64,000 nt of DNA, from positions 37,882,001-37,946,000 of the forward strand of contig NC_083288.1 in assembly GCF_963506605.1 (NCBI RefSeq), read 5' to 3'. This DNA comes from Zootoca vivipara (lineage: Eukaryota). Positions 1 through 57,756 of this stretch are shown here, piece after piece. The notes below the pieces were generated by a model that was given only the letters and a program-made list of their open reading frames with translations, did no database searches and was not told where the DNA came from. The first letter of the stretch is position 1; every line of letters begins with the position of its first letter. The position numbers were made by a program, and so were the translations under genes.

Positions 1-437
1 ACGCCACATGATGTGATGATGATCACTAGCTGACTTTGGAAAGATTAGACACTTAGACACACGCACAGAGAATACAGCTATCTGCAGCTAATGGAACCTC
101 CATGTCAGATAGCATATATATGCACACTTGAACAATTTTTAGGAAGTTTCCACTGTGTTCTATGGAGCTTAGTACTGAGATGGGATGTATATCACCAAGA
201 ACTTTTAATCTTCTTCGCTTTTCCCTGTACATAGATGTCCAGTATAGCAGGATCACTCACCCTGCTCTTTTAGTTTTCTGAATTTGTCAGCTTCAAAAAT
301 GAAAAAAAATAATAATTTGTGCCAACTACTGCTGAGGGTGGTGGCAGCAGCAGGAGTAAGTGGTGGTCCTATTCTCCCCCCCCCCACAACCCGCCCAATT
401 AAAATATTCTAACCCACATTTTTAATCAACTTTGCAG

Positions 438-3400: not shown

Positions 3401-4342
3401 TGCCCACCCTCATCTATTGATGCCATTACAGCTAGAACACAATGGCTTCTCCTCAGGATTCTTCCACCTCTAAATCACATTTCTCCTCCTGGCCATATCC
3501 CTTCACTCCACAACCTTTCACCTCATGCTGAATGGTTCCCTTCCACCTCTGCGCAGCCCTCATCATTTTGTATCTCCCCTATGCACCCTTATTTATCACT
3601 CCATTCCTGTGTTTCTTTCCACTTTTGAATAGCTCTTCATACCTCTCACCCAAAATAGCCTTCCCTCTACTCATGGAGTCTTTCCATGTTTTACGATATT
3701 CCTTCTTACGTTTCTGCCCTAAAATATACCCCACCCCCACCCCTGCTCAGCTTCTCTGTTATTTAACCATTTATTTGGACCTTAATATCCCTTAACAAAA
3801 CTATTATTCAGTGCAATTCCTCTACTCTCACACAGGCTCTACAATAGCTATTGCACTCTATATCCCTCCTCCGGTCTTAAAATAGTTCTTCTATCTCATT
3901 CCTCCCATTATGTGCCGGCCTGGGTTGATGGGAGTTGTAGCCCAATACTTCTGGAGAGCACCAGATTGGTTAAAAGCTATTTTGCACANNNNNNNNNNNN
4001 NNNNNNNNNNNNNNNNNNNNNNNNNNNNNNNNNNNNNNNNNNNNNNNNNNNNNNNNNNNNNNNNNNNNNNNNNNNNNNNNNNNNNNNNNNNNNNNNNNNN
4101 NNNNNNNNNNNNNNNNNNNNNNNNNNNNNNNNNNNNNNNNNNNNNNNNNNNNNNNNNNNNNNNNNNNNNNNNNNNNNNNNNNNNNNNNNNNNNNNNNNNN
4201 NNNNNNNNNNNTAGGGGTACTCTCATTTTCCTACTCATATTCTCATATTGAAATACTGCCCCTCAATGAGGCCAAGCTTAGATTCACAAAATGTTTGTAT
4301 GCATACCCCTGCATTCCCCAAGAAAAAAAGCACTGTGTGTGT

Positions 4343-4384
<42 letters not shown>

Positions 4385-9861: not shown

Positions 9862-11311
9862 AGAATTTTTTTATCTAAAAGTTGTAAATAGGAAAAAACC
9901 CAAAATGAAAACAAAATAAAATTAGAGCAAGAGACAGATCATCGGAGGGGAAAGCACTCCTAGACATAAGAAAAGTGGCAGGAAGTTCCACCCTCCCCTT
10001 CTAACTCTAAGTAGATATCTGGATTGAATGCGAGTATTCCTTCATAGGAATAAAGGGAAGGGGGTGGGAGGTTTTGACCCTGTGGTGGGTGGGATTTGGA
10101 TACACCAACCCCACAGGGGGTAGGATATGGAGGGATGGAGAGAGACAGAGAACACGCCCCATTGGTCAAATTAACTAGCGTGATATGGTCCCAGTCTCCC
10201 CACTCAAGGAGAAGTAGCGGCAGGGAGGGGGATAAACAGGATATAGATTTGCCAATAATACATTTAATAAATCCACCACAAAAAATTAAATGGATTTCAT
10301 AGCATTTGCATCCTCCAGTGACCAGAAAGTATACTTTATTTTAATTTTATTTATTTTTTTTGCAAAGTCTGGACTTTCTGCTGCAAAAGGGTAGGGACAG
10401 TTTAACCTTCCAGTGGCCAATAAATGTTAAGAGGAAAGTGGGAATGAGATATGGCAGCACACAGAGGAACCACTTCCCAGTCTATGTTCATCTATTCCAT
10501 GTAGTTCAAGCAGACTATACATCGAAGTGCGAAGAAACCAGGGTTATAGGTCTTCCAGCAACCAGACACAGCAAGGTTTGAAGCACTTCCTATTCTCTGC
10601 TTAAATGCTATGGAATGGCACCAAAACCAGAGTTCTAAGATCAGCTGACCAAAAAGTTTTTTTAAAAAAATTTCTTTAAAAAAGAGTTAAACCAGGAAGC
10701 ACCTAAGTGACGTAGAAGCAGAGAACTAGTCCAGATACTTCATCCTCCTAACAGTTGCAGATATTCTTTGGTCACTGGTTTCCTCTTTATTTCCAAGTCC
10801 AGTTCTCTCCATCTGATACATCCTCTATAAATAGTTTCCAGTCCTTCTAGAGAATAGAGAAGCACTGCAGATGAGCTAGAGAACTAGGCTGGGAGCCTGT
10901 CAGCTGCGCCCCTAGGAAACCATAGAACTCTGAAGATCTACAGCTTCTCTCCATTTCTGGGTTGACCTTTGTCCCCCCCGTTTCGCCTGGAGTGATCTGA
11001 GATCAGCAGAGTTCTAGGTTTTTCGATGACCAGAGGTCCCAAAAATGTGTTTCGGGCGGAAAATAAAAACTAGGGCAGCCCTGAAAAGACTATAAAGCAA
11101 TTGGCTGGAATTCAGTAGTGTGGAAAAAGATGGCCATTTCAGTCTAAGGGGTCCAGAACTGAGGGTTTATTGGGCAAGGGGAATGGAGTTGGGGGGGGGG
11201 GAGAGGAAGAGACCTGAACCCTGCCAAACTTCAAAGAGGCTGCCCACCCCAGCCAGGACAAGAAAACAGAAGCCGCACGAGGGGAGGGTGGGGGGGAGAT
11301 GGAAGAAGCAT

Positions 11312-14300
11312 TCACAGGAAGTAGTCCGCAACAGGCTTCTTAGACGGGATGCCTCGAGTTTCTTGGGGGGCAGCTTCAAAGATAATAAATTCCTTCTGAA
11401 GGTGTTCGTCCAGTTCCAGGATGGCTGCCACATTCCCGCAGCTGTGTGCAGAGCAGAGGAGAAGGGTCACAATGGGATGCCTCCAGTTTCATCAATGCCA
11501 CCCTTCCAGGTGGCATAACTCACCACCCTTCAACACAGACTAACCCTGCAATCCCTCCTTTATGCCACACAGCTCAAATGGTACACAGTGCTAGGCTTGC
11601 CATATCTGCCCGCTATTCCACACCCGTCCCTTCTGTCTCCTCACCGGTAGCAGTAGTTGGGAGCTGACCACACAGTAAGAACTGTTTCATTGAAGTGCCA
11701 CTTGTACCCCTCCATGACCAGCTGATGCGCTCGACAGATCATGTCGATGTCATTCGCCGCGTTGAATTGCGCCACCACGTCACTGCCGAATAAGTAGCCG
11801 GCACCTCGTGGGCTCACCCCCCAGCCTGTGGTATCTGCAAAGGACAGAAATGCTTGGCTTACTACACAAAGGAAACCAAGTTACCAGGCATGATCGACTA
11901 GGGGAAAGGGCATCTGCTCTCGATGAACTTATAGAACAAAGCTGATCAGCAATTGGCCAAGAGGTAGGATTTCGTATAAAGCCCTCAGCCCACCTCACTT
12001 GGGCTGCTCCATGTGCATTTTTACCAGTTAACCCCTTTTAAAAAGAACCAGAGTGAGATGAAATGATAGGGGCAGAAAATACCTGATCTTCTTTAGATCA
12101 AAGACTCAAAGGTTCTTGTTTTAGAGATTTTTGGATTACTGCACTAAGCAGCAAATAAAAGCTCTAAAACAAATAAGTAAACAAACAAACAAACAAACAT
12201 TCCTCACTGTGCAGTTTATCAGGTATTAAACCCACAGAAACTATAGGATCCTCTGCCTTCCAATAAGTGAGACCCTATTCATTCCCTTACAACACAAAGA
12301 ACTATAAAAACACAGGACAGATTCATTAAATACGTTCCACGGAGTGCTCAGATCGTATCAATTGTGATCTCTCTTTAGCAGCTTGTACAGAAGTACAAGG
12401 TCAGATCAAAGTTGCTGGGGACCTCTTGGTAACAGACTCCGCCTCTTTGGGTTTCAGTGCAATTTTAAACCAGAATTAAAGGCTCAACACTCTTCTACTT
12501 AGGCTACACTGCTCTTCCTGGCACGCTCTACTCCTAATAGTGTTTAACCTATTAAACATTTCCTGGAACAAATACCATTACCATCTTAACCATATGCAAT
12601 GCGCAAAGATTCCTTTCTCCTTCATGCATGTGTGTGCGCACACACCACACCACTCCACACACAAATATACCTTCAGGGTCAGACCAAAGGAGATCACACA
12701 TGGGGCCATCATGAGGAACCTCCTGTTTGCGATCTATTGTTCGAATCTGGTCCAGTGTCTGGATGGATGGGGACAGACCACCATGGACACAGAAAATCTG
12801 CAACAGAAAAGGAATGTGTGCATTTGGAAAGCTGCATATAGAAGCTCTAGGGCCAAACAGCACCTCCCCACCCACCACATTGAAACTCATCCTGTTGTCT
12901 TCCTGCTTTATTCTAACTGTTGCACTCTATTCTCACACCAGAAAACCTAAGTGTTTTTTTAGGCTGTAAGGCCCTTGCAGGAGTGACAGGGCCTCTAGTA
13001 CTCTGGAAAGCCCTGCACACAGTGATGGTGTGCTCACACTCTTTCTCAAATACTCCTACCATCATAAACACACACAGCATGCTTACCTTGCCATCAATGA
13101 TAGCAGAGAGGCTGAGGTAGTCAAAGATCTCAGTGCAGTAGCGCCAAACGGTGACAGAGCCGTATTTCCTCAGGCACTCATCGTAAAAGCCATATACCTG
13201 GGTGATCTGTCTGCTCTCATGGTTGCCACGGATCAGGGTGATCCTGTCAGGGTACCGGACCTGTAAGAGAAAACGACGAAACCAGCATAGACCACAGACA
13301 TGGAAATGTTATATAACCCAGAATTCCCAGCATCTCTATTCAGGTAGAACAAGGAAAGCATCCTTGGATTCATCAGGGGGCAAGGGTCATTCCTAACCTT
13401 GAGCGCCAGCAGTAGCAAGAATGTTTCAACACTGTAGAAGCCACGGTCGACAAAGTCACCCATGAAGAGATAGTTGGTCTCAGGCACATCACCACCCACC
13501 TGCAGGAGAGAAACAAAGGGCACGTAAATATATTGTCCTAGGAGTGCTTTAAAGCTGAAGTTGGGCACTGGAATTGGATGGCTGAGCAGTACTCACCCTG
13601 AAGAGCTCTTTAAGGTCATAGAACTGGCCATGGATATCCCCACAAACCTGGAAAGAAGATTGAACTCTTTAATGTTCTCAAGGGGGCTATTACTACCATC
13701 ATACCTAGTCCAGTGTATCTGAAAGGCCAAGGCCCTTCCCTCTGCCCACCAGTAAGAGCTAGATTGGCATGAGCATGGCATTTTTGGTAATAGCAAAAAA
13801 AAACATTCTTGAAACTACACCCCCAGGGAAATATGTGGTCCCTCCGTCATTCCTCTTTTTCAGAAGAACTTTGGAACTTTCAGAAGAATCCAGGTGTTGT
13901 GTTTTGATATTCTTTTTCCTCTGTTGCTGTTCATTCATTAAGGCAGGAGAGGAGAAACGTGTTCACATTCCTTTGTTGGCCTGTGTCCAGTTTCTGCCTG
14001 CTAGTAAGGAATGAGGCCAAAGGCAGAAATGGATGGAGAAACGGCTGTGACTTGTACCTTTTATACAACAGACTACATTCCAGTCATGCAAAACTCAAGA
14101 GGTTTGTACACCTACACAGACACGCACCAAATCTCCATCCAGGAAAGAGACATGATTACAGTTCAAGCACACGTTCCAAGTGAGGAAAAGGCGCATGAGA
14201 ATATTACGCAGTAACATGGCATATGGAATAGTTCTGAAGGCCAGATAGTGTCCTGGAAGTCACCTTTGGCCTCCCTCAACCTACTTCAAAGGATGTCTTT

Positions 14301-14712
14301 TTAAAAATCAGCAGCATGCTTCAATTTCTTATTTGTAAAATGCCTTGTGACAGCAATTTTTTTTAAAGGATAAAATAAAAAGTTCAGGTGTTATTGCTGC
14401 CAGCATTTGAGTCCCCAAACACTGATGAACATTTGCTTAAAAACAAGACTCACTGTTACTGGGGAATCTACTCTCTGGACGTTGCTTTCTTCCACCAAGA
14501 TCTCTCTGTAGAGAAAGGAAAGGAAATGTGTCTCACACAGAAACTCTACACCATAATTGGCTACATTTTACAGTCTTAGAACAGGTATTCTTATAGATGT
14601 CAGGCAACACTCACCTCGCCTTGGCACAGAGGGCTTTGACCTCGCTCTCCTTGATGAGCTCACAGCGCCGCAACTGCTCTATCTGACGGTCAAGGTCACT
14701 GATTTCAGCCAT
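11312..14712 (-). CDS. PPP4C: Serine/threonine protein phosphatase 4 catalytic subunit (307 aa)
   Basis: Exons 14615-14712, 14454-14505, 13597-13647, 13398-13499, 13087-13260, 12671-12797, 11645-11834, 11312-11441 (sum 924 nt). [14 protein letters not shown] start, GDIHG/GDFVDRG/RGNHE motifs, C-terminal ADYFL*. Confidence 0.98.
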
Positions 14713-15219
14713 CTTGCCCCCTTGTAGGGATAGAATTGCAGTCAACTTTTTAAAAAAATTAAAACACTTAACATCAAGGCATACAACTTTGATGACAATG
14801 GGGAAAAAGAACTGAGCACATACACCCAGAAAATATTTCCATCAAAAAGGATGAGAGTAAAAGTCAAATAATAGACCCTCAGCTCTATGTTGTTTCCTAC
14901 TATTGTCCAGTTAACAGGAAGGATCACAAGGAATATCAATAAGGGAGAGACTTATAATCTATATCTGTTTTTCCCAAGCTGGTGCTCTCCAAATCTTGCT
15001 GGACTATAATTTCTATTGGTCAAGTTGGCTGGGGCTGACAAGACCCCAAAACACCTGGAGGACACCAGGTTAGGGAAGGCTGATCTATATAGTAAACCCC
15101 TTATACTACCCTTTCCACAAAAACGGTGAAGCACCTGTAAAGAAACACTGGGGGCAACGTCACACACTGTAACACTAACAAACAAATAAGAAAGTGAATT
15201 AAACCCAAGCTGGATGCTA

Positions 15220-15257
<38 letters not shown>

Positions 15258-16326
15258 AAAAGAGCTGAAAGAGACTATGCTTTCAGACCCTCTGTGATAT
15301 GAGGCTGTTGGTATCAGAGGCATTCTCTTTCAAGCTTCTCCAAAGATTTGTGCAAACTGTGCCTCATACACTGAAAAGGCAATATAAATTTGGAAGGCAG
15401 TAAAAAAATGCATTGTTATAAAAAACAATGATCATTGTTCTACACACTTCTGTTATCAAAGGGGAGAGGGTGGTAAAATCTTTATGTTGTGTCCCAGGAC
15501 TTCTTTTCAACATCAGCAGAGTGAGCAGATTATCTCCTAGGAAAAAGTTCCCACCCTCTCCATCTTTCTTATCCAACAGTAATGGGAAGGTGCCTCCACC
15601 CAACCATCTCATTCAAAAAGCCAGGTCCCCACCTCACTATCTGATCTCTTTGCCCAATGATACCCAGAACTTTTTAAGATAAGGAGTGACGAGTCACATG
15701 AAAGGAGACAGAAGAGCATGACCAACTACCTCCTGTTACCATGACAATACCACCCTATATGTCTCTAAGATCTTCCCATCATTGCACCCATATTTGTTTC
15801 TCTGCCCCCCTCACGCAGTTAAATGATCCCATATCCCCTGAACTCACCATTAAAAGGGCAAAGGGAAATTTGCATATAAAGAAATCAAGCAAGTTGCTAC
15901 TTGTTGTATTCTTTCGCACCCTCAGAAGGGCCACCTTCCACCCCACGCCCATCCCTTTCCAAAAAGCCTTCCTTTCGGAAAAACATAAAACACCTCACTC
16001 CACGAGGTTGGGCACCCCCAAGACAGAGCGACGCCTGCCTTCTCCATGAGCTTGAGGGGAGAGAAGCCCCTTTCTCTCCTCCTCGCTTTCTCCTCCTCAT
16101 GGGCCCCACCAGCCCCGCTCCCCAAGGAAGCTCTGGCGGTCTCGCTTGTGAAAAGCGCCCAGAGCCTCCATCCAGGTGACAACTCTCCCCTCTTCCCCCT
16201 CCTGACCCCACAGGCTGCTGTCTCTATGGCAACCAACTTTCCCCGGCGCCCCCACCCGCGGCCAGGATCCAAAGGAAAGGGCGCCTCCCCCCGCGCACAA
16301 GGACGCCCCACCTTCCGGGAGCCTAC

Positions 16327-16640
16327 CTGGGGTCCCGGTAGCGGCGGCGGCGACGGTGGCGGCTGCTCCGCGGCTCCCTCCGGCTCCCGGGCCCGGCCCC
16401 TCCCCCTCTATCTTTCCGGCTCTCCCACCAACTACTGGGCGCTGTACGTCACTTCCGCTTCCTTCTAGGACGAAGAACAGGCACAGGTGAGGCGGGGCTT
16501 CTCTCCGCTATCCCTTTGAAGGGGCGGGACCTTGACTCATCGGAAGTGACGAAAAAGGGCGAGGCAGGCGGAAAAAGTATGCCGGCCATGCTGGGGTTTA
16601 AAAGGCGCCGCTGACACTCCGCCGGAAGTGACGGAATCGT
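16327..16640 (-). promoter_or_regulatory. PPP4C: PPP4C CpG-island promoter and non-coding exon 1
   Basis: GC/CpG-rich. Donor CAG|GTAGG at 16326/16327. ETS-CRE motifs CGGAAGTGACG at 16447-16457, 16541-16551 and 16622-16633, plus GC boxes. Confidence 0.75.
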
Positions 16641-19581: not shown

Positions 19582-24459
<4,878 letters not shown>

Positions 24460-25336
24460 CTAAACTGGAGAAGGCAAAGAAGTGTTAATACAAGCCTGGC
24501 AACGAGGTCTCTTGGCGCCCTGTAGCCTTGCCTTCCTCTTCTCTGCCTGCTCAGTCCTGTATCTGGAAGCCTGAAGGGAGACACCCACGCCAAGGACCTT
24601 CGGTCTGTACAGAGACTGGCAAGGAGGGCAGGAGAGAATTCTGCTCCTCCCTGTTGCTATGGAAATCGGAGGATTCCCACTAAGGTCAAGGGGGATGCCC
24701 AGATTAAAGCCATATTTCAAAGAAGGAAAGGCTCCAGCAGGTGATGGCTAGCAGATACCAAGGACGTTTCAAGGACAGAGGAAATCGCCGTTTACCCTGT
24801 TCCTCAAGAGAACCCCAGTTCTCACCCTCCCTTTTTCCAACTTCTTGCCCTGCTCTGAGCTTTCCCCCTGATATTAACTACCCCAATCAGCTACAACACC
24901 TTTGCGATGCGAGTCCAATTGCAGAAGAAAATAAACACTGGAAAGTGTAAACGAAGGAGTGAGGAATATTTACGCTTACTTTAGGGGTTTTTTTGGGGGG
25001 GCGTCCTGATTTCTTTCCCCCTCTGCAACAGTTGTACATTAAGCTTCACCACGTGATTTCAAATCCCGCTTTTCTTCCCCCGCCCGGACTTCCTCCTCCC
25101 TTCCCCCACCCCACCCCACGTTTTACCGTCTCCATCTTATCTATCTCAAAGTCCGATTATATAAACCGCGGCGGCGGAGAGAGAATAATCGCAACTGCTC
25201 CTTCGACCATATCTTATTTTTTCTTTACTTCCCTTCCCTCAAAATCCTAATCTGTAAAGAGGAAGGGCTCGCCACCCGTTCTCCTTGGAGGAAGAATGCG
25301 TGCGTAAGAAAATTTGAAAAGGGGGGGGGTTCAAAC

Positions 25337-34558: not shown

Positions 34559-36186
<1,628 letters not shown>

Positions 36187-38193: not shown

Positions 38194-38616
38194 CACAGGG
38201 TATCAATCTCTAGTGCTCTTCCCACTCCGCAGGATTCAAAATTTACATCCCTCATCTGCATATGCAAATATATCGAGCTACTGGAGCAAAAATCTTATGC
38301 ATGCTTACTTGGGAGTACGTCTGATGGGATTTTGAGTAAGGCATGCATAAGATCCCATTGTTCTAGTTACAGGTAGGTAGCCGTGTTGGTCTGGTGTAGT
38401 CGAAACAAAACAAAACAAAAAATTCTTTTCATACCAATGACAAACTTAGTTGGTCTCTAAGGTGCTACTGGAAGAAGAATTTTTATTATTATTTAGGATC
38501 CCATTGTTAGCCTTGTAAAAAGGCTTGGTGAACTAAGGTCCAGGCACCCCCAATGGGAAGTTAGTTGGCTTTTTCTTTTTTTTTGAGGGGCAGTTTCCCT
38601 GTGTTGTAAGAATTAG

Positions 38617-38742
38617 CTGGGATAGCTCAGTCGGTAGAGTATGAGACTCTTAATCTCAGGGTTGTGGATTCAAGCCCCACATTAAGCAAAAGATTCCTGC
38701 ATTGTAGGGGGTTGGACCAGATGACGCCCTACAATTCTATGA
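38617..38742 (+). mobile_element. tRNA(Lys)-like SINE with CR1-type tail (other copies near 7317-7452, 47305-47415 and 30205-30350 on minus)
   Basis: TAGCTCAGTCGGTAGAG..GACTCTTAATCTCAGGG head and GGTTGGAC..GATGAC..ATTCTATG tail. Confidence 0.7.
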
Positions 38743-39860
38743 GAAACCATATGATATCCTTGATGGCGCTAGGTCTGCAGAGCTAAAAGGCAGCACATGC
38801 TGGTCTCTTCAGACAGCCAGGACACCTCTGCTTCCCAGGAATATCTTCAGGGCTAGGCACAGACTTTCCCGTACAACCCTATTTCCCAATCTCTTCATGA
38901 TCCTTTTACACCTTTGCACATCCCTCTCCATGTTTGCCTAGGTGTGTGTTTGTGGAACATAACAAAATATAACAAATGCCAAAAATAAAACTATAAGGGG
39001 TATCGAGAACTGAACATAGCAGAACCAATTTCCATAGCAAAATAAGTATAACAGATCAAGGTTCCAAATAACATTGCATTATCCTGTACCTTATGGCTCC
39101 AGTACATTACAAAGAGACTCCATTTCTCCATAAATCTATTATCTTGCCGTCTACCCTGTCTGGTTCTAACCACGTGTGAGCTTAACCGTGCATACTGTGT
39201 CCCATATTTTAATTATTTGTTCCCTAATAGATGCTCTTTTTCCCAATTTTGACTAATAATTCTGGCAGCCGTCAAGGGATGTTGTATTCTTTCCCTGTCC
39301 TCTATTAAAAATGCTGCTTGAGCATACCCAAATGGGAAAGGGCCCTTGGGTAAATTATAGTCCATCATTTCTTCAATTTCTGTTCTTATCTCTTCCCAGC
39401 AGTTTCTGAGTTTAGGACACATCCAGAATATATGCCATATCCCACTGTTTGTGGTTTTACACCTAGCTGCCTAGAGCTATTTGTGTGCTTTTTCCTCTCC
39501 GGGACATCTACCATTACTGGTCCTGTGGGAATGGTTCCTAGAGATAAGAAAGAAGCAGGCATGTGATGAAGAGCACCTCAGAGCAGTCTCCAGCTGTGCT
39601 GATTATTTTTAAAAATATTGATATTGTTTATTGAACTGTTATTGCTTTTTAAAATGTGATTAAAGTTCAGTGCTTCTTGCAAGCCAGCTTGATCTGTATC
39701 CTGAAAGGCAGAATGCAAATAACTCTAATGCTAATTAAACGCCTGTCCCTCATCATGTGTCTGTGCACTTAGAGGGGGCAAGGGTGTTTGTCACGTTGTA
39801 GATGCTTTTATGTGGCTTGGAGGATATGGACTACTGGTCATTTGAGGCTATCACTGAAGC

Positions 39861-40170
39861 CCCATCTGCACTATCCATTTAAAGCACTATGCTACCACTT
39901 TAAGCATGGCCTCCCCCCCCAAAAAAAAATAATTCTGGGAACTGCAGTATGCTAAGGGAGCAGTGAGTTATTAGGATACATCTATTCCCCTCCACACAAA
40001 GTAATTTAACAATCAATCCCTCTTCCCAAGAAACTCTGGGAACTGTAGCTCTGCGAAGGGAATAGGGAGTCTCCTAACAACTCTCAGCACGCTTAAAAAA
40101 CTGCATTTCCCAGGATTATTTGGGGAATGTTATGACTATCTAAAGTGGCATGATACTGCCTTAAATGTAA
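39861..40170. mobile_element. Palindromic non-autonomous DNA transposon (Harbinger-like MITE)
   Basis: Long imperfect inverted arms CATTTAAAGCACTATGCTACCACTTTA / TAAAGTGGCATGATACTGCCTTAAATG with internal CTGGGAACTG(C/T)AG motifs. Confidence 0.55.
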
Positions 40171-40668
40171 CCAAGGAGGAAAGCTTTCCCCCCCTACTGG
40201 AAGATAGTATTTTTTATTTCACACAGATCTTCAGACAATGATATCCTCATTGTATTTCTTCCAGCCTCCAACATTCAACTTGGTGAACAAGAAAAATACC
40301 TAAACTTTTTCATCAACTTAGCAATCAAACGCCTCCATGCAGCAAATGTCTATTAAATGGACTCCATTTGCATTCTCACTAAAGAGACACAAGCGATATT
40401 CAACCTGCTTTATTATAAAATGCAGCAATTCATATAAAAACATTAATATCAAACACGTAGTACAAAGTACAAAAGCTCTTGAAAAATCAACATGAAAAAC
40501 AAAAAGCTCAGTTTCAAAACTTCTTGCATCAGGACAAGTTAATTATGTCAGGCTGAGCAACTAACTCCCCATTTTACTTGTCCACCGCTTGTAGGATCTA
40601 CCACTTGTATGGAAACTTCCAAATCCTCCCACACTCCCAAATCACAGACATAATCTATTTTGAGTTCT

Positions 40669-43600
40669 TCATCGCAGTTTGATCTCAAAGCAAATGCAAT
40701 TGATGTTCTGGCAGTCTGGGGGCTGGTATGTGCAGGCACAATCGCAGAGTGGACACAAGCGGGGAAAGGAACAAGCCCCTGGTTCCCAGCCCTGCTGGTA
40801 AGAGACAGAAATTGTACACTGTTAACCTATGGAAATACCTGCATCAAAATGTTACAACATCCTTCACTAAACTTGGACTTAGGGAAATACCGAATAATGA
40901 TTACCACAAGACTGTTGAAAGGCAGGGTATAAATATTTTAAATTAATAAATAGGCATTGTCTGAAGATAGATACCAGAAAAGGATAGGCTTGAATATCAT
41001 GGTAAGTTCCCTTGACATTTTCCCACTCTGAACACCTATAAGTTCAATGTTTCTCAACATGCAGGCCACATCCTCCCTGGAGAAGCTCAGACAAGCTCTA
41101 AAGAAAGTTTAAGTGTCTGTCTACCCTGTTCATCTTTCTTCCTCCCACATGGATCCCTCTTGCCTGTCCCTCTCCTTTCAAATGATATATATTGTTTTGG
41201 TTAGCATATGATTTTAAGGAGTATGGGTTTATTAAATAACAAGTGCTGCTGTTTTCAAGAGCCTCTTTACTTGAAACTATTCAGGTAGCTTGTTATCTCT
41301 CCAGAAATACCACATGTTTGCTACTGCCTAACTTGCAGGCTTTGTTACTCATGCAGGTAGAATTAGAGATCCACAGGAAATGCATTCTCTAGTTCAGAAT
41401 TTCAATCTAATTCCACATTCAGACATTGCCACTTGCACAAACACACTACACACAGGTAAACAGTAGAGCTGCCACACAATTCAAGATATGCAGCACAATC
41501 CTATACATATTGATAAATTTTATGTCTACCCATTTTTAAGTTTGATTTTATGAGTGCTTTTATGAATATATTGATTTATGTATACCACATAGAGATATTT
41601 AAAATTCAGTACTATATAAATCTTGTTAAATAAGTAACATCTGGAAAACTACAGGTTTGCCATCCTTGCTCTAAAAAGGCAAGGTATTATTCTGCTCCGA
41701 ATTGTTCTCTCTTTCCTCTTAGCACAGAGTAACAGAGCATGCAACCATACCTTCTCACCCTTCTCCTCCACCCAACAAAAAAATAAGTTTCCCTCCAAAA
41801 TGTGTAACATACATGAAGGCCAGTCATTGCCACGCCCCACATTTTCATCTGCTAAGCCCTGGACCGCCTTTCCACCTGGACACTGCTGTGTACAGTGGAA
41901 CCTCATGTTATATACTGTCCTCCTTACGAATGCTTCGGGTAACGAGCTCCGCTAACCCATAAGTAGATGCCCCTAGTTGTGAACTTTGCCCCGGGATGCG
42001 AGCGGAAGTCGCGCACCGGTGGCGTGGCAGCAGCAGGAGGCCCCATTAGCGAAAGCGTGCCTCATGTTAGGAATGGTTTTGGCTTAAGAACAGACCTCCA
42101 GAAGTAATTAAGTTTGTAACCGGAGGTACCACTGTATTCAAATGACCCCAGGGGAAACTAGTCTCAGATATTTCCAAAAAGCCAATCAATTATCCAGAGG
42201 GAAAACTCACATTAGTACAGGTGCAGTAGCGATCCATACAGCGGGTTGGGGAAGGAATGGCACAGTCACATGATTCTGCACAGGTCAAACAGCATTCGCA
42301 CATGTTTGGCCAAGGCCGCTTTTCACAGGAACAGCAGTTGGCACAAAGACCCCGGGCCTGCGAAGAGATAAGAGAAGGAAAACCAGGTTGGTTAACCAAA
42401 CAACCAGAGTTAAGAAGCAATTCTTTTTATCTCTCATAGGCTAGAGCTCCTATGATTTGTTACGAAATTGATTGCAAGGACGCGGGTGGTGCTGTGGGTT
42501 AAACCACAGAGCCTAGGGCTTGCCAATTAGAAGGTCGGCGGTTCGAATCCCCGTGAAGGGGTGAGCTCCTGTTGCTCGGTCCCTGCTCCTGCCAACCTAG
42601 CAGTTTGAAAGCATGTCCAAGTGCAAGTAGATAAATAGGTATCGCTACAGCGGGAAGGTAAACGGCGTTTCCGTGCGCTGCTCTAGTTTGCCAGAAGCGG
42701 CTTTGTTATGCTGGCCACATGACCTGGAAGCTGTACGCCGGCTCCCTCGGCCAATAACGCAAGATGAGCGCCGCAACCCCAGAGTCATCTGCGACTGGAC
42801 CTAATGGTCAGGGGTCCTTTTTAATCCAAAATTGTCAGAACACCAACTGCGCAATATTAACAATGTGAATTTGTTACCCCTTTCTACTTGCTCTCCAAAG
42901 GACTACTGCTTCCATAATGCACTGTCATATGGTATGCTGTAATACACTATGGAAAAGATAGATCTATCCTCATTATTACACCTATAAAAATCCCCAAATG
43001 TGTTTTGCCCTTTCAACCATCACCATCCCTTTCCCAAGTTACCATCAGGCACTGTCGGAGGACAAGGACCAGGGCCAGGAGTAATAAGTAGGATCCAACG
43101 ACCAAGAAAATGATGGCAGGAAGAGGCAGGAACAAGGTTGTGGCAAAAGGGAGGTCTGGTGGAGGGTTCAGCGATGGAGTCTGTAAGGAGAGGAAAGCCA
43201 AAGGAGAAGGGACATTGACAGTACGGTATGGAGGGTGAGGAGGAAGAGGAGCAATTAAAGGCGTTACATGGCTGAGCACTGAAATACAGCTTTGCACGTA
43301 ACACAAAACACCTGCTAGGAATTTGGAATGTTCTTAATATCAGAAAATTGACAGATGGAATATTTAACCTCTGACCAGAAGCATATACATGAAGTGTATA
43401 GCTTCTCTGACATAGGTTAGTACATGTTTGGAAGTTAGGTGACTCCTCTTAATCTAGTGGTGGTGGCAGCAGCAGCTGCAGATATAATATTGTTTTAATG
43501 AGTTTCTAACCTTCAAATATCTGTGAGGCACAGAGGATCACATACTTATATGAAGAGGATCCCACAATAATCAATATTCCAAACTCAAAATGTTTGAATT

Positions 43601-44526
43601 TTAACACATGGCTTTCAAATCAGTCTTCAATGATTCCTAAGTAGATTTGTTAAATTCAGTTCAGTCACATGTCAAACTGGGAGATGAGAGATGGGGCACT
43701 TTGAGAAGTGAAGTGAAGGGCAGTGTGAATACAGATGTAAGAATGCTTTACCCTGTTTCCCCCTTTTTAATACATAGTCATAAAGTAAGCCATGGCAGGG
43801 TTTTTAAGCATTTGAGAAATATAAGACATACCCCCAAAATAAGCCATACTTCCGCGCCATGGAAACCAACCCCCACAGGCACCTCCACTCACAGAGTCAC
43901 TCCATGCGGCCAAGAGCTCTGCTTAACAGCTGATCGCGCTCCCGCCTTGCTGGCTGCATCCCCGTGCTCCGCTTGCCACCATCGCTGGGCTCACTGCTTC
44001 TTCCTTGCCTGGCCCAGCCAAGGAGCTTGGAGCACCCTGCAGCGGCGGGGGGAGCGCCTGAGCCAGTGGCCTCCGCCTGGCCTGGCCAAGGACGCCTGCT
44101 GCCCCGCCGCCCGGAACCGGTGGCTGCTGCAGTGCTGAGCACTCAAGAGAGCACAGCAGCGCCCTGAGCCAGCGCCCTGAGCCGTAAAAACCGTACCAGT
44201 AATTAAAAAAAATAAGACATCCCACCGAAAGTAAGCCACCCTGTGTTTTTTTGAGGAAAAAAAGTTATAAGACGGTGTCTTAAAAAGGGGGAAACACGGT
44301 ACTTACTGCCATTCCTCAGCTGGGGAAGGACTAGGCATCAACCTCTGGAGGCTCCATGGATAGCTCAGAGCCCCGAGGAAGAGACAAATAACTTGAAGCT
44401 ATTACAGACCATGCTTCTACTTGTTCCTTGAGCACAACATCTATAGTCTGCTAGAGCAAAAGAGAGGGTCAGAACTTACTGAGCAACAGAGTTAAAACTC
44501 ACTTTCTTCATGAAGCTTTCATTCAT
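40669..44526 (-). CDS. Small single-pass membrane Cys-rich protein (144 aa), orthologue-like of the uncharacterised human ORF upstream of ALDOA (LOC112694756)
   Basis: Exons 44503-44526 (MNESFMKK, least certain), 43043-43180 (TM: LPLPAIIFLVVGSYLLLLALVLVL), 42211-42357, 40669-40794 (CPLCDCACTYQPPDCQNINCICFEIKLR*). All phase 0 and GT-AG. AATAAA at 40409-40414. Probable non-coding exon 1 ends at 45292. Confidence 0.85.
41891..42137. mobile_element. Tc1/mariner (Tigger-like) MITE
   Basis: TA-CAGTGGAACCTC ... GAGGTACCACTG-TA. Confidence 0.75.
42478..42819 (+). mobile_element. Sauria SINE
   Basis: Full-length copy starting GGACGCGGGTGGTGCTGTGGGTTAAACC. Confidence 0.9.
43790..44301 (-). mobile_element. 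Non-autonomous mariner/Tigger-like element with GC-rich interior (related pieces at 3261-3290 and 4441-4640)
   Basis: Repeated AAAATAAGAC/AAATAAGCC motifs and terminal GAAACACGGTA. Confidence 0.6.
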
Positions 44527-44615
44527 GTACATTAACTCTGAAGACTACTGATTTCAAAGAGGTCTCAACCATATTGAGATTGATCAAACAGGCTCCAAAG
44601 CTCTAATGTTGCTGT

Positions 44616-44618
<3 letters not shown>

Positions 44619-44666
<48 letters not shown>
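44619..44666. repeat. (CA)n microsatellite
   Basis: Direct reading. Confidence 0.95.
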
Positions 44667-44670
<4 letters not shown>

Positions 44671-45229
44671 GAATGGTATTGATTAAAGTTTCAGTGTCAC
44701 TGGGATAAATAAATTTTTATTTTGGAAAGGAAGCTCGAATATTTGTCTTCTGTTTTGACAGTTGACCCCACAGCCCCCTCCAGCAAGCCTACTTCCCCTC
44801 TCCCTGCTCATCGCACCCTTCCCTTCCATTCTTCAAAATTTCCTCTTTCCATAACCAAATGGAAACGAAATGAAACAGTCCTTCCTCCTCCTCCCAATGT
44901 TAATGAGCCTCCAGTCTCTTCTGATTAATGTCCACTCCCTTATGAATATTGTTCATTATTCACTGTGCAGCTTTATTCGTATTACGTAATCCGAGACAAG
45001 AATCTGCGCTCCCTGTTTCTGGCGATGTCCAAACCCACCCGCCAGGAGGTGGACATCAGTGCTGCCGATTCACGTTCATACGCTTCCCGGGCCTTCCTCC
45101 ATTGTGGAGCGAGCGGCCTAGACGAAACTGGGCTCTGAAGCTCAAGTCGTTGTCTCTCAGCCTAACCTACCTCACGGGGCTGCTGTGAGGATAAAACGAG
45201 AGAGGGGGGGACGCTGCTCTGAGCAACTT

Positions 45230-47150
45230 GGAAGCCATGCAGTAGTATGTAAATATACCAAGGCGTCCCTCGGTCGCCGTGGAAACCGCACCTGCGCGCG
45301 CGGCCCGCTACGGGCTCTCACTGCGACCAAACTCTCTTAAGGCCGCTGTGCTCCTCCGCGGAAGTGAGGCGAGACATCGGACAGGAATGAAAAATGTTGC
45401 GTCAACGGAAATGCGGCGAACTGCACCAGAAGTGACGTCAGAGAGAGAGAGGAAGCGAGTGGGCCTCTTCCATTTTTGTGCGGGGGGGGAGGGAGAACAG
45501 CTCAAGGTAGAATAGTCGACTCAAAGCCCTTCCTCTAAACGAGTGGCCGGGGATTTCCCCTATTGCCTGCATTCGAGTAAACGTCGACCCAATTCATTCC
45601 TAACAGCAACCCGCCAAACCATCAGACTTTTCCTCCACTCTTCTCTCGGTCCTCAGTAAAACGTCGCCAGACAGACTTATCCTACCTATTGAAGGAAATC
45701 TACCCAGTAACGGGAGTGTTCTGCAGCGCGGCATTGGCCCGTTGTAGCGACCAATCAGGCCCCGAAAGGTGGAGGGAAGGAGGCGGGGCGGGGTGGGGGG
45801 GTAAAACGGAAAGCCCATCATATTCAAAAGTTCATGACAGTCGTTACTCCACGAGCGGCGCATGCGCGGATGATTCGCTCGGTTTTGCGCGGCGCATGCG
45901 CTCAACAAGAAGATTATAGACATAAAGATTATAGACTTGTACGTTGAGGCTGCCACCGGGTTTACTTCGGGCGTCATATTCGGTCTCCTCCAGGACGGAG
46001 AAAATGACGGGGTTAGGTGTGACGGAGAAGTGGAGTGTCCACGCCCCATAAACAGCAGCAAAAATAGGAGATCGTACTATTTCTTAATCGGGAGTCGTTC
46101 CGTATTTTTTAATTTTTTTAAAATTAAGCATTTCAAAGTGCAGCACACACCTATCTGCATGCATGCGAATCGCCGGAGCACCAGGATTTTGTGTGCAACT
46201 GAGCGCTGGATTTGGCCTCGGGGTACAATTTAAGCAGATTATTCAGCTTTCCTGCAGTCTGAAGAGTATTTTACGTGAGGAGTTGTTGCAGAACAGCTTC
46301 TCCGTTATATTACCGGTATCATTATTATTTCGATACTTCTACTCCGCTCTTCCAAGTGAATACCCAAAGCAGCTTACGAAAGAAATAGAAACCCAATACA
46401 GTATACAATATCAAAGCCCTAAATCAATACAAATTGTTATTAACGCAGCAATATTTCACGGGGCGGCGGCATTGCAGGGCTGTGCAAAGCGCTCTTTCTT
46501 TCCCTCCCGCAGTACCGCAGCCTGCAAGAATGAGGATGATTAATGGGCTGCATTGGCGTTGCCAGGGTTTTTCTTCTTAAACGAAAACGCGTTTTCCGCA
46601 CTAAATGACAATTCTTCTTTTGTTTCGGGCGGGGGGAGGCGGCAATCAGAGGTGAGAAATGCGCGGGTGGGGGGTTCCGATCCCACGTTCAGCCTCGGCT
46701 ACGGAGCTGCGTTCTTCTATCTTTGCAGCGCTCCCTCCCACTTCGGAAAACCGCGTTGCCCCTCTTCACTTTTCCTGCATCTGTCTCGAAGACGGGCTGC
46801 AGCTCTGTGCACATGCGCAAAGCGCCTCTCCTGCTCCACTCCACCCCTCCGCCTCCGCGTGTCCCCGCTATTGTTGGCGGTTCGTTGTTGCCACGGAAAC
46901 CACAAACTATCTGAAGGGGCAGTTAGGCCCTGGGTGGGGCGGGCTGCGTGCAATACGTTAGATGCGCGGAGAGGGCAGGAGAGAGGAGGGCAGGCGCTGA
47001 ATGGGGGGCGTGATTTAAGTTTACGCAGACGTTTGCTGCAATAATTTAAATGTATTAATCATCCCGCGTTAATTAGCCCCAGGACTGGGCGGGAAGGAGA
47101 GCAAACATGCAGAGTTACTCAAATGCGCCCAGGTGGATGGCGGTGCATAT
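45230..47150. promoter_or_regulatory. Large bidirectional CpG island between the Cys-rich gene (-) and TLCD3B upstream exons (+)
   Basis: High CpG density. ETS/CRE GAAGTGACGTCA at 45429-45440, NRF1 palindromes GCGCATGCGC at 45858-45867 and 45892-45901, CCAAT and GC boxes, RFX X-boxes at 45273-45286 and 46887-46900. Confidence 0.7.
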
Positions 47151-47642
47151 GTAATAATTGAAAGAGTCATTTAAATGTATGTGCAGATCTGCCTTCATAA
47201 GAAAATATTTTGGTCGCGGCATTAATATTCCTGAAGGCGGGTAAGCTAGTCATTTAGGTGCCTCGTTCCTCGTAAAAAATGGATTTTCACCCTTTGCACT
47301 GGATGGCTCATTTGGTAGAGCAGGAGACTCTTAATCTCAGGGTCGCTGGGCAAAAGGTTTCTGCATTGCAGGGGGTTGGACTAGATGACCCTCGTTGGTC
47401 TCTTGCAATGCTATGAAATTGACACCTACGGTTCATATATTTAGTAGGAAATGTGTCACCCCTCCTCCCCTATAATGCTGAAACTTCAGCATATTAACAG
47501 CTTCTCTTTTTAGTTCCTATCCAAGGGTTTTCATGCTGAACTACTACTCATTGTTACTAAGTGATTGCTAATCAGAAAAAAACCCATTTTGATACCCCAA
47601 CGTTTTTAAATTTACTATGCGTTTTTTACTCAGAAGTACTAG

Positions 47643-52430: not shown

Positions 52431-53058
52431 GGCTAAACCCAGGGGACTCCCTGCTGCGGTGAGGGTTTTAAGGAGATGAATGGGCAGATTCCTCTCCCTC
52501 CTTCCGCCACTCTTCCCTGTCCCAAGCCTCCCGCTCTGAGTCACCATCCCAAACCTCTCCCCGCTTCTGATCCACCCATAGAGTCCAGCAGCCCCAACCC
52601 GCATCCTCTCCCTGCCTCCCTCCTATCAGCACCCGCTTCCTCCCTTTCCTCCTCCGGCAGCTCAGCCCCTGTCTCCAGTCCCCAGGAGCTCCTGGCTGCA
52701 CTGATCCTCGCAGCCTCCTTTTGCCCGCTCCTCTCCTCCGCCAGTCCCTCCACACACCACAGGCCACTGTCTCTTTAAGTTCCCTCCCGCACTGTGCTGA
52801 CAGCTGCTCCCTGCTCCCCCTCCCTCCCCTGGCTCTGTCTCTCTGTCTGTCACAGCAGCTCTGCTTGGGACCAACCCGCACACCACCGCCATCCCCCCCT
52901 TCCCTCTCCATCCCCCCCTCGCCCCCTTGGTTACCATGAGTCTTCCTCGAGGGGAGCGCCTGGAGGGATCCTAGCCCTGCTGACCCTCCCCATCTGTGTG
53001 GCCCCCCCTCCTCTTCCTCCTCCTTCTCCTCCCCCCTCAACCCTGCAGCCTGAGCGAG

Positions 53059-56000
53059 ATGTTTCACGCCTTGGTAGCAGGGGGCATTGTCTTCCCCGGC
53101 CTCTTCTTGTTGTCCAAGAACGGCCTTAAGTGGCTGCCATGGCTGCGATGGGAGGAGGCCGACGCGGTCATCGTCTCCGCCAGGTAACCAGGGAGCCAGG
53201 GGAGGGAGGATGCAGCCAGGGTCCAGCAGCGGAGGGTGGGCCGCATCCGAGGGTGGGCATCCAGCAGGCCTCAGGTGTGAGGGGCTAGGACTCTTCCCTC
53301 CCATATTTTCTTGAAGGATGAGGGTGGAAGCAGTGGGTCCAGGGCTTCAGGGAAAGGGGCAGGCTCCTTTGAAAGGGGAGTGGTACAATGGCATCGAGAG
53401 GATGGGCTATGAACTAGGTTTTTCTAATGAGGTTCTTTTTTTAAATAGGTCCTAGAATGAGGCGGGGTTGGGAGCCAGGTTTCCTGGGTTCGTTGGGATT
53501 GGAATGGGGTGCAGCAAGTTGCAAAGTGGCTTTCCCTAGTGGATCCATGGGCATATCTGCAAGGAAGCAAAGGGACAGATCTGCTGGATTCTCTGGGAAA
53601 GGTGGAGTGCCTGGGACCATGAGCCCAGACCTCTGGGTTTCTCAGGGAGAGATTGGGGCGTATTAATTGGGAATCAAGAGCTGCGCTAAAGCTGAACTTG
53701 GGTGATGAGGTGTCACTATCCCACGATGACAGCCAATAGAAGCAGTAGCCCAGATAAACCCAGGGTTCCTCTCAGCAAGATGTTTGGAGCCCAGCATTGA
53801 GGAGATTGGTGAACCCACGGTTAGGGTTAGGCTTTGGCAAGGTCTGTGACTTGTGAGGGATGAGATTCCCGGGGATCTGCTGTTAAGAGGGTGTGTTTCA
53901 GGAGATGAGGCTGTTTGCTGGGCTTCCCAGCAGTGTCAATACACTTTGTCTGCTCAGTGTTTCAAGGGGGACGCTCTGGGGCAGAATGTCTGGTTGCTCT
54001 CATTGCTTAGTGCATATATCTAGGAGCTCAAAAGCTGCTCCAGGGTTGGCAGTCTTTGGTGATCACATGACAAGGCTGTGTGTCAGGGTCACAGAGCAAA
54101 TGAGGCTCTTAGCAATTGTTGCTGATCCCCTAAGATGACCTTAAGATAGCAGCTGTTCTGGGATGGCGAAGAGCATGGATTTGAAGGTGCTTGCCAGGGC
54201 TGAAGGTGGAGGAGGCCCAGATCAGCTCCAAGGGGCATTTCATTGCTCTGAGGTCTGCTGGTCTGGATTCCAGGGGTCAGAACTGGAATGGTGAGCAGAC
54301 TATTAAGTCCAAGAGAAGAGAGAGGCAATGGCAGTAAACTTTGTTTTTGTTTCCCCCTTCTTCCCTACCACAGGTTTGTCTCCTCAGTGCAGGCCATCAT
54401 GGCTTCCACGGTCGGCTACATCGTCTCCTCTTCCTGCAAGCACATTATCGACGACCAGTAAGTCAGCATTTGCTGTGTGCATGCCAGCCCAGCACTGCAG
54501 TGCGGTAACTCACTCTCTCCCTGTGTCTCCCACACCTTTCCCAACCTCACTTTCTGAACACGGCCCAGCAGAGTGTTGGCAAGGTCATGCTAGTGAGAAA
54601 CCCGACACCCTCACCGGGATGGGCACCAAATTTAGAACAGGATGACAGTGACATGTTACAGGCAGATGTGCAGCAAGGAGTAGGCCTGGGAAGGAGTCAG
54701 TACAGGGAACTGGAAGGCACAGCACAGGAAATGAAATAATCTTACCAGCAGGAGGTGCTATGGGGAACAGCATTGGTGGAAGCAATGGCTTGTGGGAAGA
54801 GGGCAGTGCCCTGCTGTTTCTGCCCCATAAGAAGGTATTTGGGAGGTAGCTGGAGAGTAAAGTCGGGAACTTTGCTTTTGGAAGCTGCTCCCACTTGCTA
54901 CAAATCCAACAGGGGGTGCTGGAGAGAACAGGGCAAAAGTGATGGCAATAAGAGAGGCAGATTGGCCTGTGTGGCACAGAGCGCTGTCCGTGGTGCTGCA
55001 GAAATACCTCATTCCTTGAGCTTCTAAATTCAGCACCATGGGCAGCTCCCTCTTGCACAACTGTTCCCAAGGTCCCAAGCAGTTCATGGGGCATCTGAGT
55101 TGAGGATTCCCAGAGCGTGTGCTGGAGAGAGAGCTGCTAGTCTCACTGGATTCTAGGACAGCTGCCAGACCTCGGTCTCTGCAGAGAACAATTTGGCAAG
55201 AGGGCAGCTCTGCAGGGCAAGCAGGAGCATAAACACAGCAGGAACCCAGAGAGCTCCTGGAAGGGGGACGGGATAGAGGTGTGGGGTGTGTATGTGTCTG
55301 GGCCTTTTCCAATTCGCCGTCCCTTTTTGCTTTGCCATCAGGATTGTTTCATTTCACGCTAATGAATTTAGCTGAGATTAGTCCCTTCCCCAGGACAGGC
55401 TAGAATGGGGGGCACGTGTGCTAATTCTCCCCTAGGATAGAGCAGGGCAGGGGATTAGACCAAAGCAACAGCTGTTTCTACCGCTGATTTGCGTTCTTTG
55501 GACTCATAATTGGCTTTATTGGGCAACCAGTGATGACGAATTCCTGGGCTCCCTAAAGGGGGGGGGAGAGTGGGCTCTAGCAGGTTACATCATACGGAGG
55601 CTGGATATCTGGATTCTTGGAGAGTAAACTCCAGCTGGTTAGAGCAAGGCAATTAGAGGCAGGAGTTGAGGATTCTCTTAGGGCAAAGAGAAGAGTTTCC
55701 AGATTTCTGTACTTGTATCCATTACAATGCTCTCACTGTGCCCTTTGCACTGGGAATCTCCTGTTGGGAAGCAATGTGGCTGAGGGCAGGCAGGATTTCA
55801 ACTCTTTCAAAGCGTTCCCTTAACTGACCCCAATGCCAGGCTCCTGATATCATCTTTGCAGTCCTGTAACACAGAAACCTTCTAGCAGCGCCCCCATCCC
55901 CACCCCATCTGAATTCTGCTTGGATGCCACCTGCCCCATTTTGGTCTCCAAGCTGAGCACCCCACAGCATCTCTTGGGCCCTGCATCCCGCATAGCACTG

Positions 56001-57756
56001 CAGCATCCTTGCTGCTTTTCTGGCATTTGGCCTAATCACCTTGCATGGAGCCATCAGCAGAAATGCCCAGGCAGGCTGCAGTGGTGAGGGAGGAGAGTGA
56101 CGAGAAGTCAGCTGGGGAGGTGGCAGTAAGGAAGTCACAGCCCAGACTTAAAGAAACAGCACTCCATTTGCCTTCCTCTCAGCCTGAAGGGGGAAAAGGA
56201 TCAGGGCTAGAAGCACCTTTTTCAGTCCCTGAATTCCCCTCTTATCACCTGAAATGGAATAGGATTAAGGCTGATGTCCTGGACTTATTTACATTAATCC
56301 TATTACCTTTTATAGAACTTGTGGACTTCTAAATAAGCACAAGGTCGGAAGCATGGTTCGCTGCCGGTAGTCAGACAAAATATCCTGGATCTAAGGGGAT
56401 TGAGGGTGCCCTGCCTGGGGGTGGCAGTGGGGCTGCGGTCAGGATTGAAAGGCAATGCCAGGACAAGGTGAGGTGGGAATGGCAGCCCGTAGCTTGGATA
56501 TGGCTGTGGTCAGCGTGGCTTGGAGAAACAACAGGGAGCTGTCAAACCACAGAGAGCCCAGCGAGCAGGAATGGAAGAACTTGGGGGCTATGGGCAAAGC
56601 TTTGTTCTCATTGACCTTGTGTGAGCAGAGCGCACCAGCAGGTCATCAATACTCATTGATCATGGCTGTGAGCCTGTTCTAAGGGGGCGGGGCACCTCCT
56701 CTTGCTCTCTCTCTCTCCCCCCCCCCCGGCTGGAATTCCCTGCTGAGTCACTGCCAGGACTGTGTCTTGCTCACAACCTTCCCCTGCCCTAGCATTCTTT
56801 CTCCTCCTTCTGCAGGCACTGGCTGACCTCCAGCTACACCCAGTTTGCCATCCCCTACTTCATCTACGACATCTACGCCATGTTCTTGTGCCACTGGCAC
56901 AAGTACCGGGTCAAAGGGCACGAGTCGGCCGGCACCCGGACGCTGCGCACCGTCGTCCGCGCCTACTTGAACAAGGAGTTGCTCATGGTGGTCCACCATC
57001 TCTTCATGGTGCTGGTTTGCTTCCCCATGTCTGTGGTGAGTGTGGCCTGGCGTGGGAACCTCTGTACATAGGAGGAGGAGGAGGCGAGGAAGGGATGGGA
57101 TGGGATGCTGATGTATGGAGCAGAAGTGGGGCAGAGAGGGGCTGTGCGCTTTAGAGGCTGCTAACGCCCACCCCAAAAAGTCACCCTTCTCGCTTTCTCC
57201 CACTTCAGCTCTGGCGCCAGGGCAAGGGCGATTTCTTCCTGGGTTGTATGTTGATGGCTGAGCTTAGCACCCCTTTCGTCTGCCTCGGCAAAGTCCTCAT
57301 CCTGGTAAGTATGACCCAATCCTGTGGGTTTTCTGGGGAGAGGAACGAGAACCCAGCGGGGCAGAGCAGGTTCTTTGGCTTCCTGGAGGGAGCTGGTGGT
57401 GGCCTAACTGTCCTCTCAACCCCTCCTCTTCTTTCCTGCCACAGTACAAGCAGCAACACACCCTTCTTCATAAGGTGAATGGAGTAATCATGCTGATCAC
57501 ATTCTTCTGCTGCCGGATCCTGCTCTTTCCTTACATGTACTGGGTATACGGGCACTATGCCGGCCTGCCCCTTTATCGCGTGCCCTTCTCCATCCCCGTC
57601 GAGTACAACTTGGGATCGGCCATCCTCATGGCGCCCCAGGTTTACTGGTTTGGCCTCATCTGCCGCGGCGCTTTCCGCGTGTACCGCTCCCAGGGCGCTG
57701 CCAAGGATCAGGTGCTGCGAAATGGGCACAGACCAGAGACGCAGGCGCTGGACTGA
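53059..57756 (+). CDS. TLCD3B: TLC domain-containing protein 3B / FAM57B (ceramide synthase-like, 278 aa)
   Basis: Exons 53059-53183, 54374-54457, 56816-57035, 57209-57304, 57445-57756 (837 nt). VAGGIVFPGLFLLSKN..RWEEADAVIVSAR, MVVHH, GDFFLGCMLMAELSTPFV, RILLFPY, APQVYWF motifs. ATTAAA near 58906. Confidence 0.95.

Follow-up and report, generated by a model that had tools for sequence, protein, structure and literature searches.

The 64,000-nucleotide stretch of the Zootoca vivipara genome analysed here (contig NC_083288.1, positions 37,882,001 to 37,946,000; hereafter the window, numbered from its first letter) carries on its reverse strand a spliced and expressed gene of five exons, with the start codon in exon 2 and a cysteine-rich product of 137 amino acids. 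Homology identifies this lizard gene as the single-copy orthologue of human LOC112694756 (ENSG00000285043), a member of a family that extends back to sponges. The product is read here as a one-pass membrane protein whose cytosolic cysteine tail would be poly-S-acylated and lie flat against the membrane, and which would act as an adaptor or accessory subunit of another membrane protein. This explanation, taken whole, is given a probability of about 0.5.

Gene structure and transcript evidence

Three raw RNA runs carrying the same species label as the window (X20, X21 and X22, with about 6 in 100 of each read) and a contig set (X1) were compared with positions 39000-47200. The joint from 44307 to 43180 was crossed by 17 reads in X20 and 22 in X21, the joint from 43043 to 42357 by six reads in X21 and none in X20, and the joint from 42211 to 40791 by two reads in X20 and one in X21. 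All three coding joints are also carried by a single 854-base X1 contig. Run X22 contained no spliced reads of the gene. These read-supported junctions, together with profile E-values down to 1e-64, place the gene beyond chance. A scan of the genome returned one locus; the next-best match had an E-value of 0.013 and contains a stop, so the gene is single-copy.

All exons lie on the reverse strand. The non-coding first exon (45171..45321, 5' end not fixed) lies within a CpG-rich stretch (45-47 kb) with an observed/expected CpG ratio of 0.97. Its two donors, 45171 (five reads in X20 and eight in X21) and 45292 (six and five), both join acceptor 44447, as does a third donor at 45686 (five and two) that marks a further alternative first exon, seen at its 3' end only (45686..45698). 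Exon 2 (44307..44447) is mostly 5' leader and ends in ATG GCA (44312-44307), the start and second codons, followed by the GTAAGT donor from which the 17 and 22 reads depart. The start has G at -3 and +4 and an in-frame TGA two codons upstream, and the closest homologues begin Met-Ala or Met-Thr before the same sequence. Exon 3 (43043..43180, 46 codons) encodes a proline-rich N-terminus, the predicted transmembrane helix with Tyr33, and Arg-Gln-Cys46. Exon 4 (42211..42357, 49 codons) encodes cysteine clusters and two predicted amphipathic helices (about residues 67-77 and 85-92), and the coding part of exon 5 (40669..40791, 40 codons and TGA) encodes the core C-x-C-x6-C-x3-N-C-x-C-F-E-I. The 3' untranslated region (UTR; 40394..40668) contains AATAAA at 40414-40409, and the assembled transcript ends 15 bases past this signal, at 40394. 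Raw sense depth was zero below 40370, at low coverage, and the contig end does not itself prove the 3' end.

A preliminary description of the locus, made from the sequence alone, had proposed four phase-0 exons encoding 144 residues. All four intervals are open and in phase 0 with GT donors, and the three internal or last ones have AG acceptors. Joined, they do encode 144 residues, with 21 of the 22 cysteines in the last 90 and one hydrophobic segment (19-residue Kyte-Doolittle peak of 3.07), as had been described. The proposed splice from 43043 to 42357 is the one that reads use, and reads also leave 42211 as proposed, but they enter at 40791 rather than 40794. The last acceptor is a tandem AG; the 40794 form adds one Gln, corresponds to RefSeq Zootoca isoform P0004 and could be an alternative isoform. 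The proposed first exon (44503..44526, reverse strand) was excluded from the supported model: depth was zero over 44480-44753 in all four runs, no joint leaves 44503 and no homologue starts in this way. With it falls an N-terminal N-E-S sequon that had given implicit support to a lumenal N-terminus, as the read-supported protein, with its different start and 22 cysteines, is without any N-x-S/T sequon.

The exon 2 leader holds four short upstream open reading frames (ORFs; 7, 15, 8 and 14 codons), of which the 14-codon one overlaps the main start out of frame, and the longer first exon adds a fifth upstream ATG. Translation of the main coding sequence (CDS) may be damped or regulated by these ORFs. 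Because all coding exons are in phase 0, annotated homologue isoforms in two groups (P0056, P0059 and P0064; P0005, P0067, P0071 and P0072) skip either the membrane exon or the middle cysteine exon, and skipping of the membrane exon would give a soluble cysteine-rich form. No exon-skipping joint was listed among the lizard reads compared with positions 39000-47200. Reads of opposite orientation at 40370-40643 in run X22 (depth 4.2) represent either an antisense transcript or misplaced reads. Most reads fall on interspersed repeats within the introns (about 42480-42820 and 43750-44290), where depth does not reflect transcription of the gene.

Orthology, range of the family and the human gene in print

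Once the optional Gln is removed, the 137-residue protein differs at one position in 137 from a protein annotated in Zootoca as 'LOC112694756 homolog' (P0004). With the last exon alone as query, 12 of 12 candidate proteins matched, with 'LOC112694756 homolog' at the top. A profile built from nine sequences matched 75 proteins among 7997 scored candidates, ranging from shark to mammals and including a nemertean, and it also matched 87 cluster representatives. A 139-residue cetacean member showed 52% identity over 96%, and several mammalian members fell at 50-54%. Thirty distant clusters were looked up, of which 14 were unnamed and 16 were named; the latter include members from lamprey, a tunicate, a hemichordate, spiders, horseshoe crab, a priapulid, bivalves, an argonaut, an annelid, a copepod, a crayfish, two nematodes, Seison, an orthonectid and the sponge Amphimedon. 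Among these 30 clusters (16 named), neither insects nor organisms outside the animals were represented, and the range is a lower bound. One match, the cysteine-poor repeat protein P0109, appears to be false and was kept out of every alignment; alignments A2 and A3 omit truncated or mis-spliced models, and A4 keeps some partial rows. Relatives with conserved cysteine spacing were found as far as the sponge, in agreement with the earlier proposal of an ancient protein.

Members of the family have been automatically named keratin-associated protein, SMCP, Mst84Db, aldolase A, MEDEA and G-protein gamma 4-like, and the family has been obscured in databases because of this misnaming. The keratin-associated and SMCP names look composition-driven; those proteins consist of repetitive Cys-Pro-Ser units with no transmembrane helix, an architecture that differs from the one found here, and no Pfam keratin-associated model matched. 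Searches of Pfam assigned no family to the three lizard exon peptides (0 matches), to nine members (two weak single-member matches) or to 46 members (seven weak single-member matches, best E 0.005, mostly to membrane-protein or DUF models).

The gene is a known and annotated one, and its family is unnamed and unstudied in the literature searched. In the available passages of Mudge et al. 2019 (PMC6886504), a 139-residue CDS of four coding exons in the 5' UTR of ALDOA (ENSG00000285043) is described, termed uncharacterised and called 'conserved amongst vertebrates'. The same passages report that the CDS is transcribed together with ALDOA in human and mouse but forms a polyadenylated locus of its own in zebrafish, with expression in testis, cortex/brain and cell lines, and in the supplement promoter activity is mostly in testis and cancer lines in both human and mouse. 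Those passages offer no topology or mechanism, and the range they give is vertebrates, whereas the range found here reaches sponges. The human and lizard genes are alike in length (139 and 137 residues), in their four coding exons, in a predicted helix followed by a cysteine tail, in the C-terminal motif and in adjacency to ALDOA. The relationship to LOC112694756 that the preliminary description had suggested was upheld, down to the human C-terminus that it gave, which is present in the supplement of Mudge et al. Its picture of a hidden gene was not, as a near-identical lizard protein was already annotated and the human CDS had been published in 2019. Orthologues also carry the names ENSMUSG00000114515 and Gm57854 in mouse and si:ch211-198p11.6 in fish. 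No functional study of the family was found in the literature and bioRxiv, which were searched by identifiers and leave subscription journals largely uncovered. The clone-derived label AC093512.2 used in three papers could not be tied to this CDS and was set aside.

Membrane topology and the cysteine tail

Anatomy and topology were counted over 46 diverse homologues. The N-terminus before the helix is 3-33 residues long and free of cysteine (0 in 877 residues). The hydrophobic segment comprises 23 or more residues, and in the lizard the helix spans about residues 21-47 (from 43126). Tyr33 (43090) is kept in 44 of the 46 and is Phe in the other two. Lysine and arginine in the 15 residues that follow the helix outnumber those before it in 44 homologues, equal them in two and fall short in none, and a cytosolic cysteine tail is favoured because of this positive-inside charge. 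Probably there is no cleaved signal peptide and the helix inserts with the N-terminus out and the tail in (type III). The preliminary description had proposed the same orientation, which the charge of the homologues favours and the lost sequon does not.

The tail contains 13-35 cysteines, an odd number in 23 homologues and an even number in 23, and is marked by three blocks: A-E/Q-x-C-D/N-C-x2-P-S, C-L-D-x2-C-P and C-x-C-x6-C-x3-N-C-x-C-F-E-I. Among the best kept positions are Pro83 (42 of 46), Cys93 (44), Asn129 (42) and Cys132 (45). The last block had been described as an invariant C-terminal motif. It is conserved, but outside vertebrates it ends the protein in only a few cases; most invertebrate members continue past it with low-complexity tails, and so the motif is internal and not a sorting signal of the terminus. 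AlphaFold2 (AF2) models from 38 and 98 sequences had mean pLDDT values of 59 and 63 and were confident only for helix 22-50 (block pLDDT 86-98), with two short tail helices and a terminal beta-hairpin predicted at pLDDT of about 50. Foldseek returned 0 matches, with a tail model too poor for fold comparison, and the best VIA-align Z was 4.0, with rows over the helix region and the tail barely tested. Two sequence matches in the PDB, to the transmembrane stretch of sodium-channel beta-2 (E 0.04) and to a cysteine-rich plant peptide (E 4), were put down to composition. A two-copy complex prediction scored 0.01, but the alignment was not used and the score counts neither way.

The role of the tail cysteines was approached through their substitutions. 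At 23 columns with a cysteine majority, 157 of 231 replacements were F, I, L, M, V, W or Y, versus 683 of 2880 at other tail columns, and two of the 231 were His. In a tree count, in which each single-residue clade was counted once and 97 of 98 rows were kept, 266 of 395 changes from cysteine were to a hydrophobic residue (F, L, I, W, Y, V or M) versus 44% expected from BLOSUM62, and 124 of 395 were aromatic versus an expectation of 9%; His occurred once. Among one-step codon neighbours of cysteine, F, Y and W were taken 61, 31 and 32 times, versus 27, 29 and 6 for S, G and R. The helical moment of residues 66-81 and 84-94 rises when cysteine is scored as hydrophobic. The tail cysteines are read as S-acylated because they are replaced mostly by large hydrophobic residues, and metal ligands or disulfides would account for the pattern less well than cysteines that face the membrane and carry S-acyl groups.

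In the proposed mechanism, the long hydrophobic segment would insert with the N-terminus out and the tail in, with no signal-peptide cleavage. Cys46, next to the membrane, and many cysteines of the tail would be acylated by zDHHC enzymes, with both amphipathic helices lying along the inner leaflet; this acylated arrangement is considered fairly probable. Tyr33, in mid-membrane, and the N-C-x-C-F-E-I strand could then be partner-binding surfaces, by which the protein would sort or stabilise a partner in a lipid domain. This last step is speculative, and its odds are put somewhat below even. Alongside acylation, the best-conserved cysteines of the C-terminus may also hold a metal site.

Known cysteine-rich systems offer partial likenesses. 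In the ESM Atlas, the family's own unnamed clusters scored 0.93-0.96 by language-model features, and the nearest named cluster, influenza B glycoprotein NB (PF04159), followed at 0.76, below the 0.9 bar and with no alignment. NB is a small type III protein with a cysteine-rich palmitoylated tail, and the likeness is a lead on architecture, not homology. The cysteine-string protein DNAJC5 and other poly-S-acylated clusters likewise have dense CC and C-x-C arrays in which large hydrophobic residues can stand in for cysteine, and in the CSP-alpha cysteine string Leu, not Ala, can replace the cysteines in membrane binding (PMC5428344). Unlike DNAJC5, the present family has no J domain, has a true transmembrane helix by prediction and shows no sequence match, so that the comparison is one of analogy only. 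CYSTM/CYSPD proteins are also small and widespread with a cysteine-rich C-terminus, shown to be palmitoylated in yeast CYSTM proteins (PMC10840359). In CYSTM the 5-6 cysteines sit together in a single C-terminal segment and a true transmembrane helix is lacking, whereas members of the present family carry a helix near the N-terminus and 13-35 cysteines; no CYSTM/CYSPD Pfam match was found in the 46 members.

Several points weigh against the acylated type III reading. N-terminal sequons number 10 versus 6.3 in shuffled sequences (p = 0.076), with none in the lizard protein, and conservation along the helix has no significant one-sided periodicity (p = 0.18). That no signal peptide is cleaved was deduced from helix length and the uncharged N-terminus. 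Nine core cysteine columns are at least 85% conserved, which exceeds what acylation alone usually needs. The substitution excess was judged without a control family such as metallothionein, a zinc finger or a disulfide domain, and buried free cysteines of folded domains also swap with hydrophobic residues. Alignment of cysteine-rich stretches is unreliable, and the rows are related, so that the p-values overstate. In the table of Mudge et al. the peptide-support cell for the human CDS is empty (PMC6886504).

The nine conserved columns, five of which (111, 118, 125, 130 and 132) fall in the last 30 residues, are also what would be expected if the cytosolic tail were a zinc or copper thiolate cluster, acting as a structural module or a metal or redox sensor, with a core of Cys111, 116, 118, 125, 130 and 132 (P0004 numbering). 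C-x-C and C-x2-C motifs are dense, a weak beta-hairpin is predicted by AF2 in the C-terminal core, and in mammals and fish this core reads C-x-C-x4-C-x4-C-x-C-F, which is the spacing in the first of the two halves of a tesmin/MSL2 CXC zinc cluster. The CXC/CRC cluster has nine conserved cysteines in two halves, however, and here the second half is absent and the would-be ligand position 120 is Tyr, Phe or Trp in many members, this lizard included. Metallothioneins are soluble, with about 30% cysteine and no aromatic residues, whereas this protein has a predicted transmembrane helix and six aromatic residues in the lizard tail. At E <= 0.1, neither a metallothionein nor a CXC model of Pfam was matched by any of the 46 members, and His replaced Cys in only the one of 395 changes. 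A thiolate cluster can coexist with acylation, and is considered rather unlikely.

The same tail has been viewed in two further ways, each of them very unlikely. As a type II protein, its cysteine-rich part would be lumenal or extracellular and disulfide-folded into a ligand-like domain; the lizard protein has an even cysteine count (22), and no lumenal sequon fixes its N-terminus. The basic residues after the helix in 44 of 46 homologues argue otherwise, as do tail cysteine numbers without even bias, tail sequons at chance (24 versus 25.5) and weak paired cysteine loss (best phi 0.61, on two to five sequences). As a sperm or epithelial cross-linker like SMCP or keratin-associated proteins, it would form intermolecular disulfides on an organelle membrane, in keeping with the largely testis and cancer-line promoter activity (PMC6886504) and with the automatic names of many members; against this stand the composition-driven look of those names, the missing Pfam match, an ordered, non-repetitive motif kept from sponge to mammal and the cortex/brain expression given in the same supplement. 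That the ORF merely regulates ALDOA from upstream, its peptide being irrelevant, is close to refuted. Co-transcription in human and mouse speaks for it, but the zebrafish locus is separate and polyadenylated (PMC6886504), the lizard gene has its own AATAAA and is parted from ALDOA by a tRNA as well as by an intact CRK-family gene, and amino-acid motifs are conserved to sponges.

The ALDOA neighbourhood and significance of the gene

The neighbouring genes in the window were recognised from six-frame peptides and are presumably the T-box gene TBX6 (403-6600, forward strand), PPP4C (11200-16500, reverse), ALDOA (about 20000-24460, reverse) and a TLCD3B-like gene (52900-57750, forward). Their order matches human TLCD3B - LOC112694756 - ALDOA - PPP4C - TBX6, with the gene on the same strand as ALDOA, and the 16p11.2 block is conserved in order in this lizard. 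The human 16p11.2 BP4-BP5 list, for the interval to which the preliminary description had assigned the gene, places LOC112694756 between TLCD3B and ALDOA, and in three of five passages of this clinical paper the gene list omits it (PMC11354020).

The first ALDOA coding exon was found at about 24450, 16 kb from the AATAAA of the gene. In between lie a tRNA match (38616-38688, forward strand, 47 bits) and, beyond it, a CRK-family gene (34559-36132, reverse strand; exons 36132-35959, 35769-35314 with a GC donor, and 34684-34559) that is intact and encodes 251 residues with an SH2-SH3-SH3 arrangement. The genome has three CRK-family loci, the other two on contigs C15 and C17, and the one in the window would seem to be a third paralogue. 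In humans the CRK family has two genes (PMC5043372), and none appears at this place in the human 16p11.2 list (PMC11354020). The third gene is possibly a retained whole-genome-duplication copy that was lost in mammals. While human and mouse transcripts continue into ALDOA, that of the lizard appears to stop at an AATAAA of its own, with the CRK-family gene lying in between. This layout, with its own promoter, its own poly(A) signal and an intervening gene, together with the zebrafish locus, supports the human two-ORF transcript being a later arrangement. Expression counts and '5' UTR' variants of human ALDOA may, for this reason, partly belong to this gene.

The gene itself is no discovery, being annotated in lizards and published for human in 2019. 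Its product is a protein kept from sponge to mammal, apparently single-copy here and without a family model or matching fold, encoded in the much-studied 16p11.2 region. The predictions of topology and acylation are cheap to test experimentally. In the most far-reaching reading, which is considered distinctly unlikely, the animal-wide family, from sponge to human, would serve some core membrane machine, such as a channel, a transporter or an enzyme of the zDHHC type, as its obligate accessory subunit, with about twenty acylatable cysteines and N-C-x-C-F-E-I as a docking strand, and would have been missed because it was fused to the ALDOA transcript in mammals after loss of the CRK-family gene. 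If this were true, the human orthologue would be an overlooked dosage-sensitive gene within the 16p11.2 deletion/duplication.

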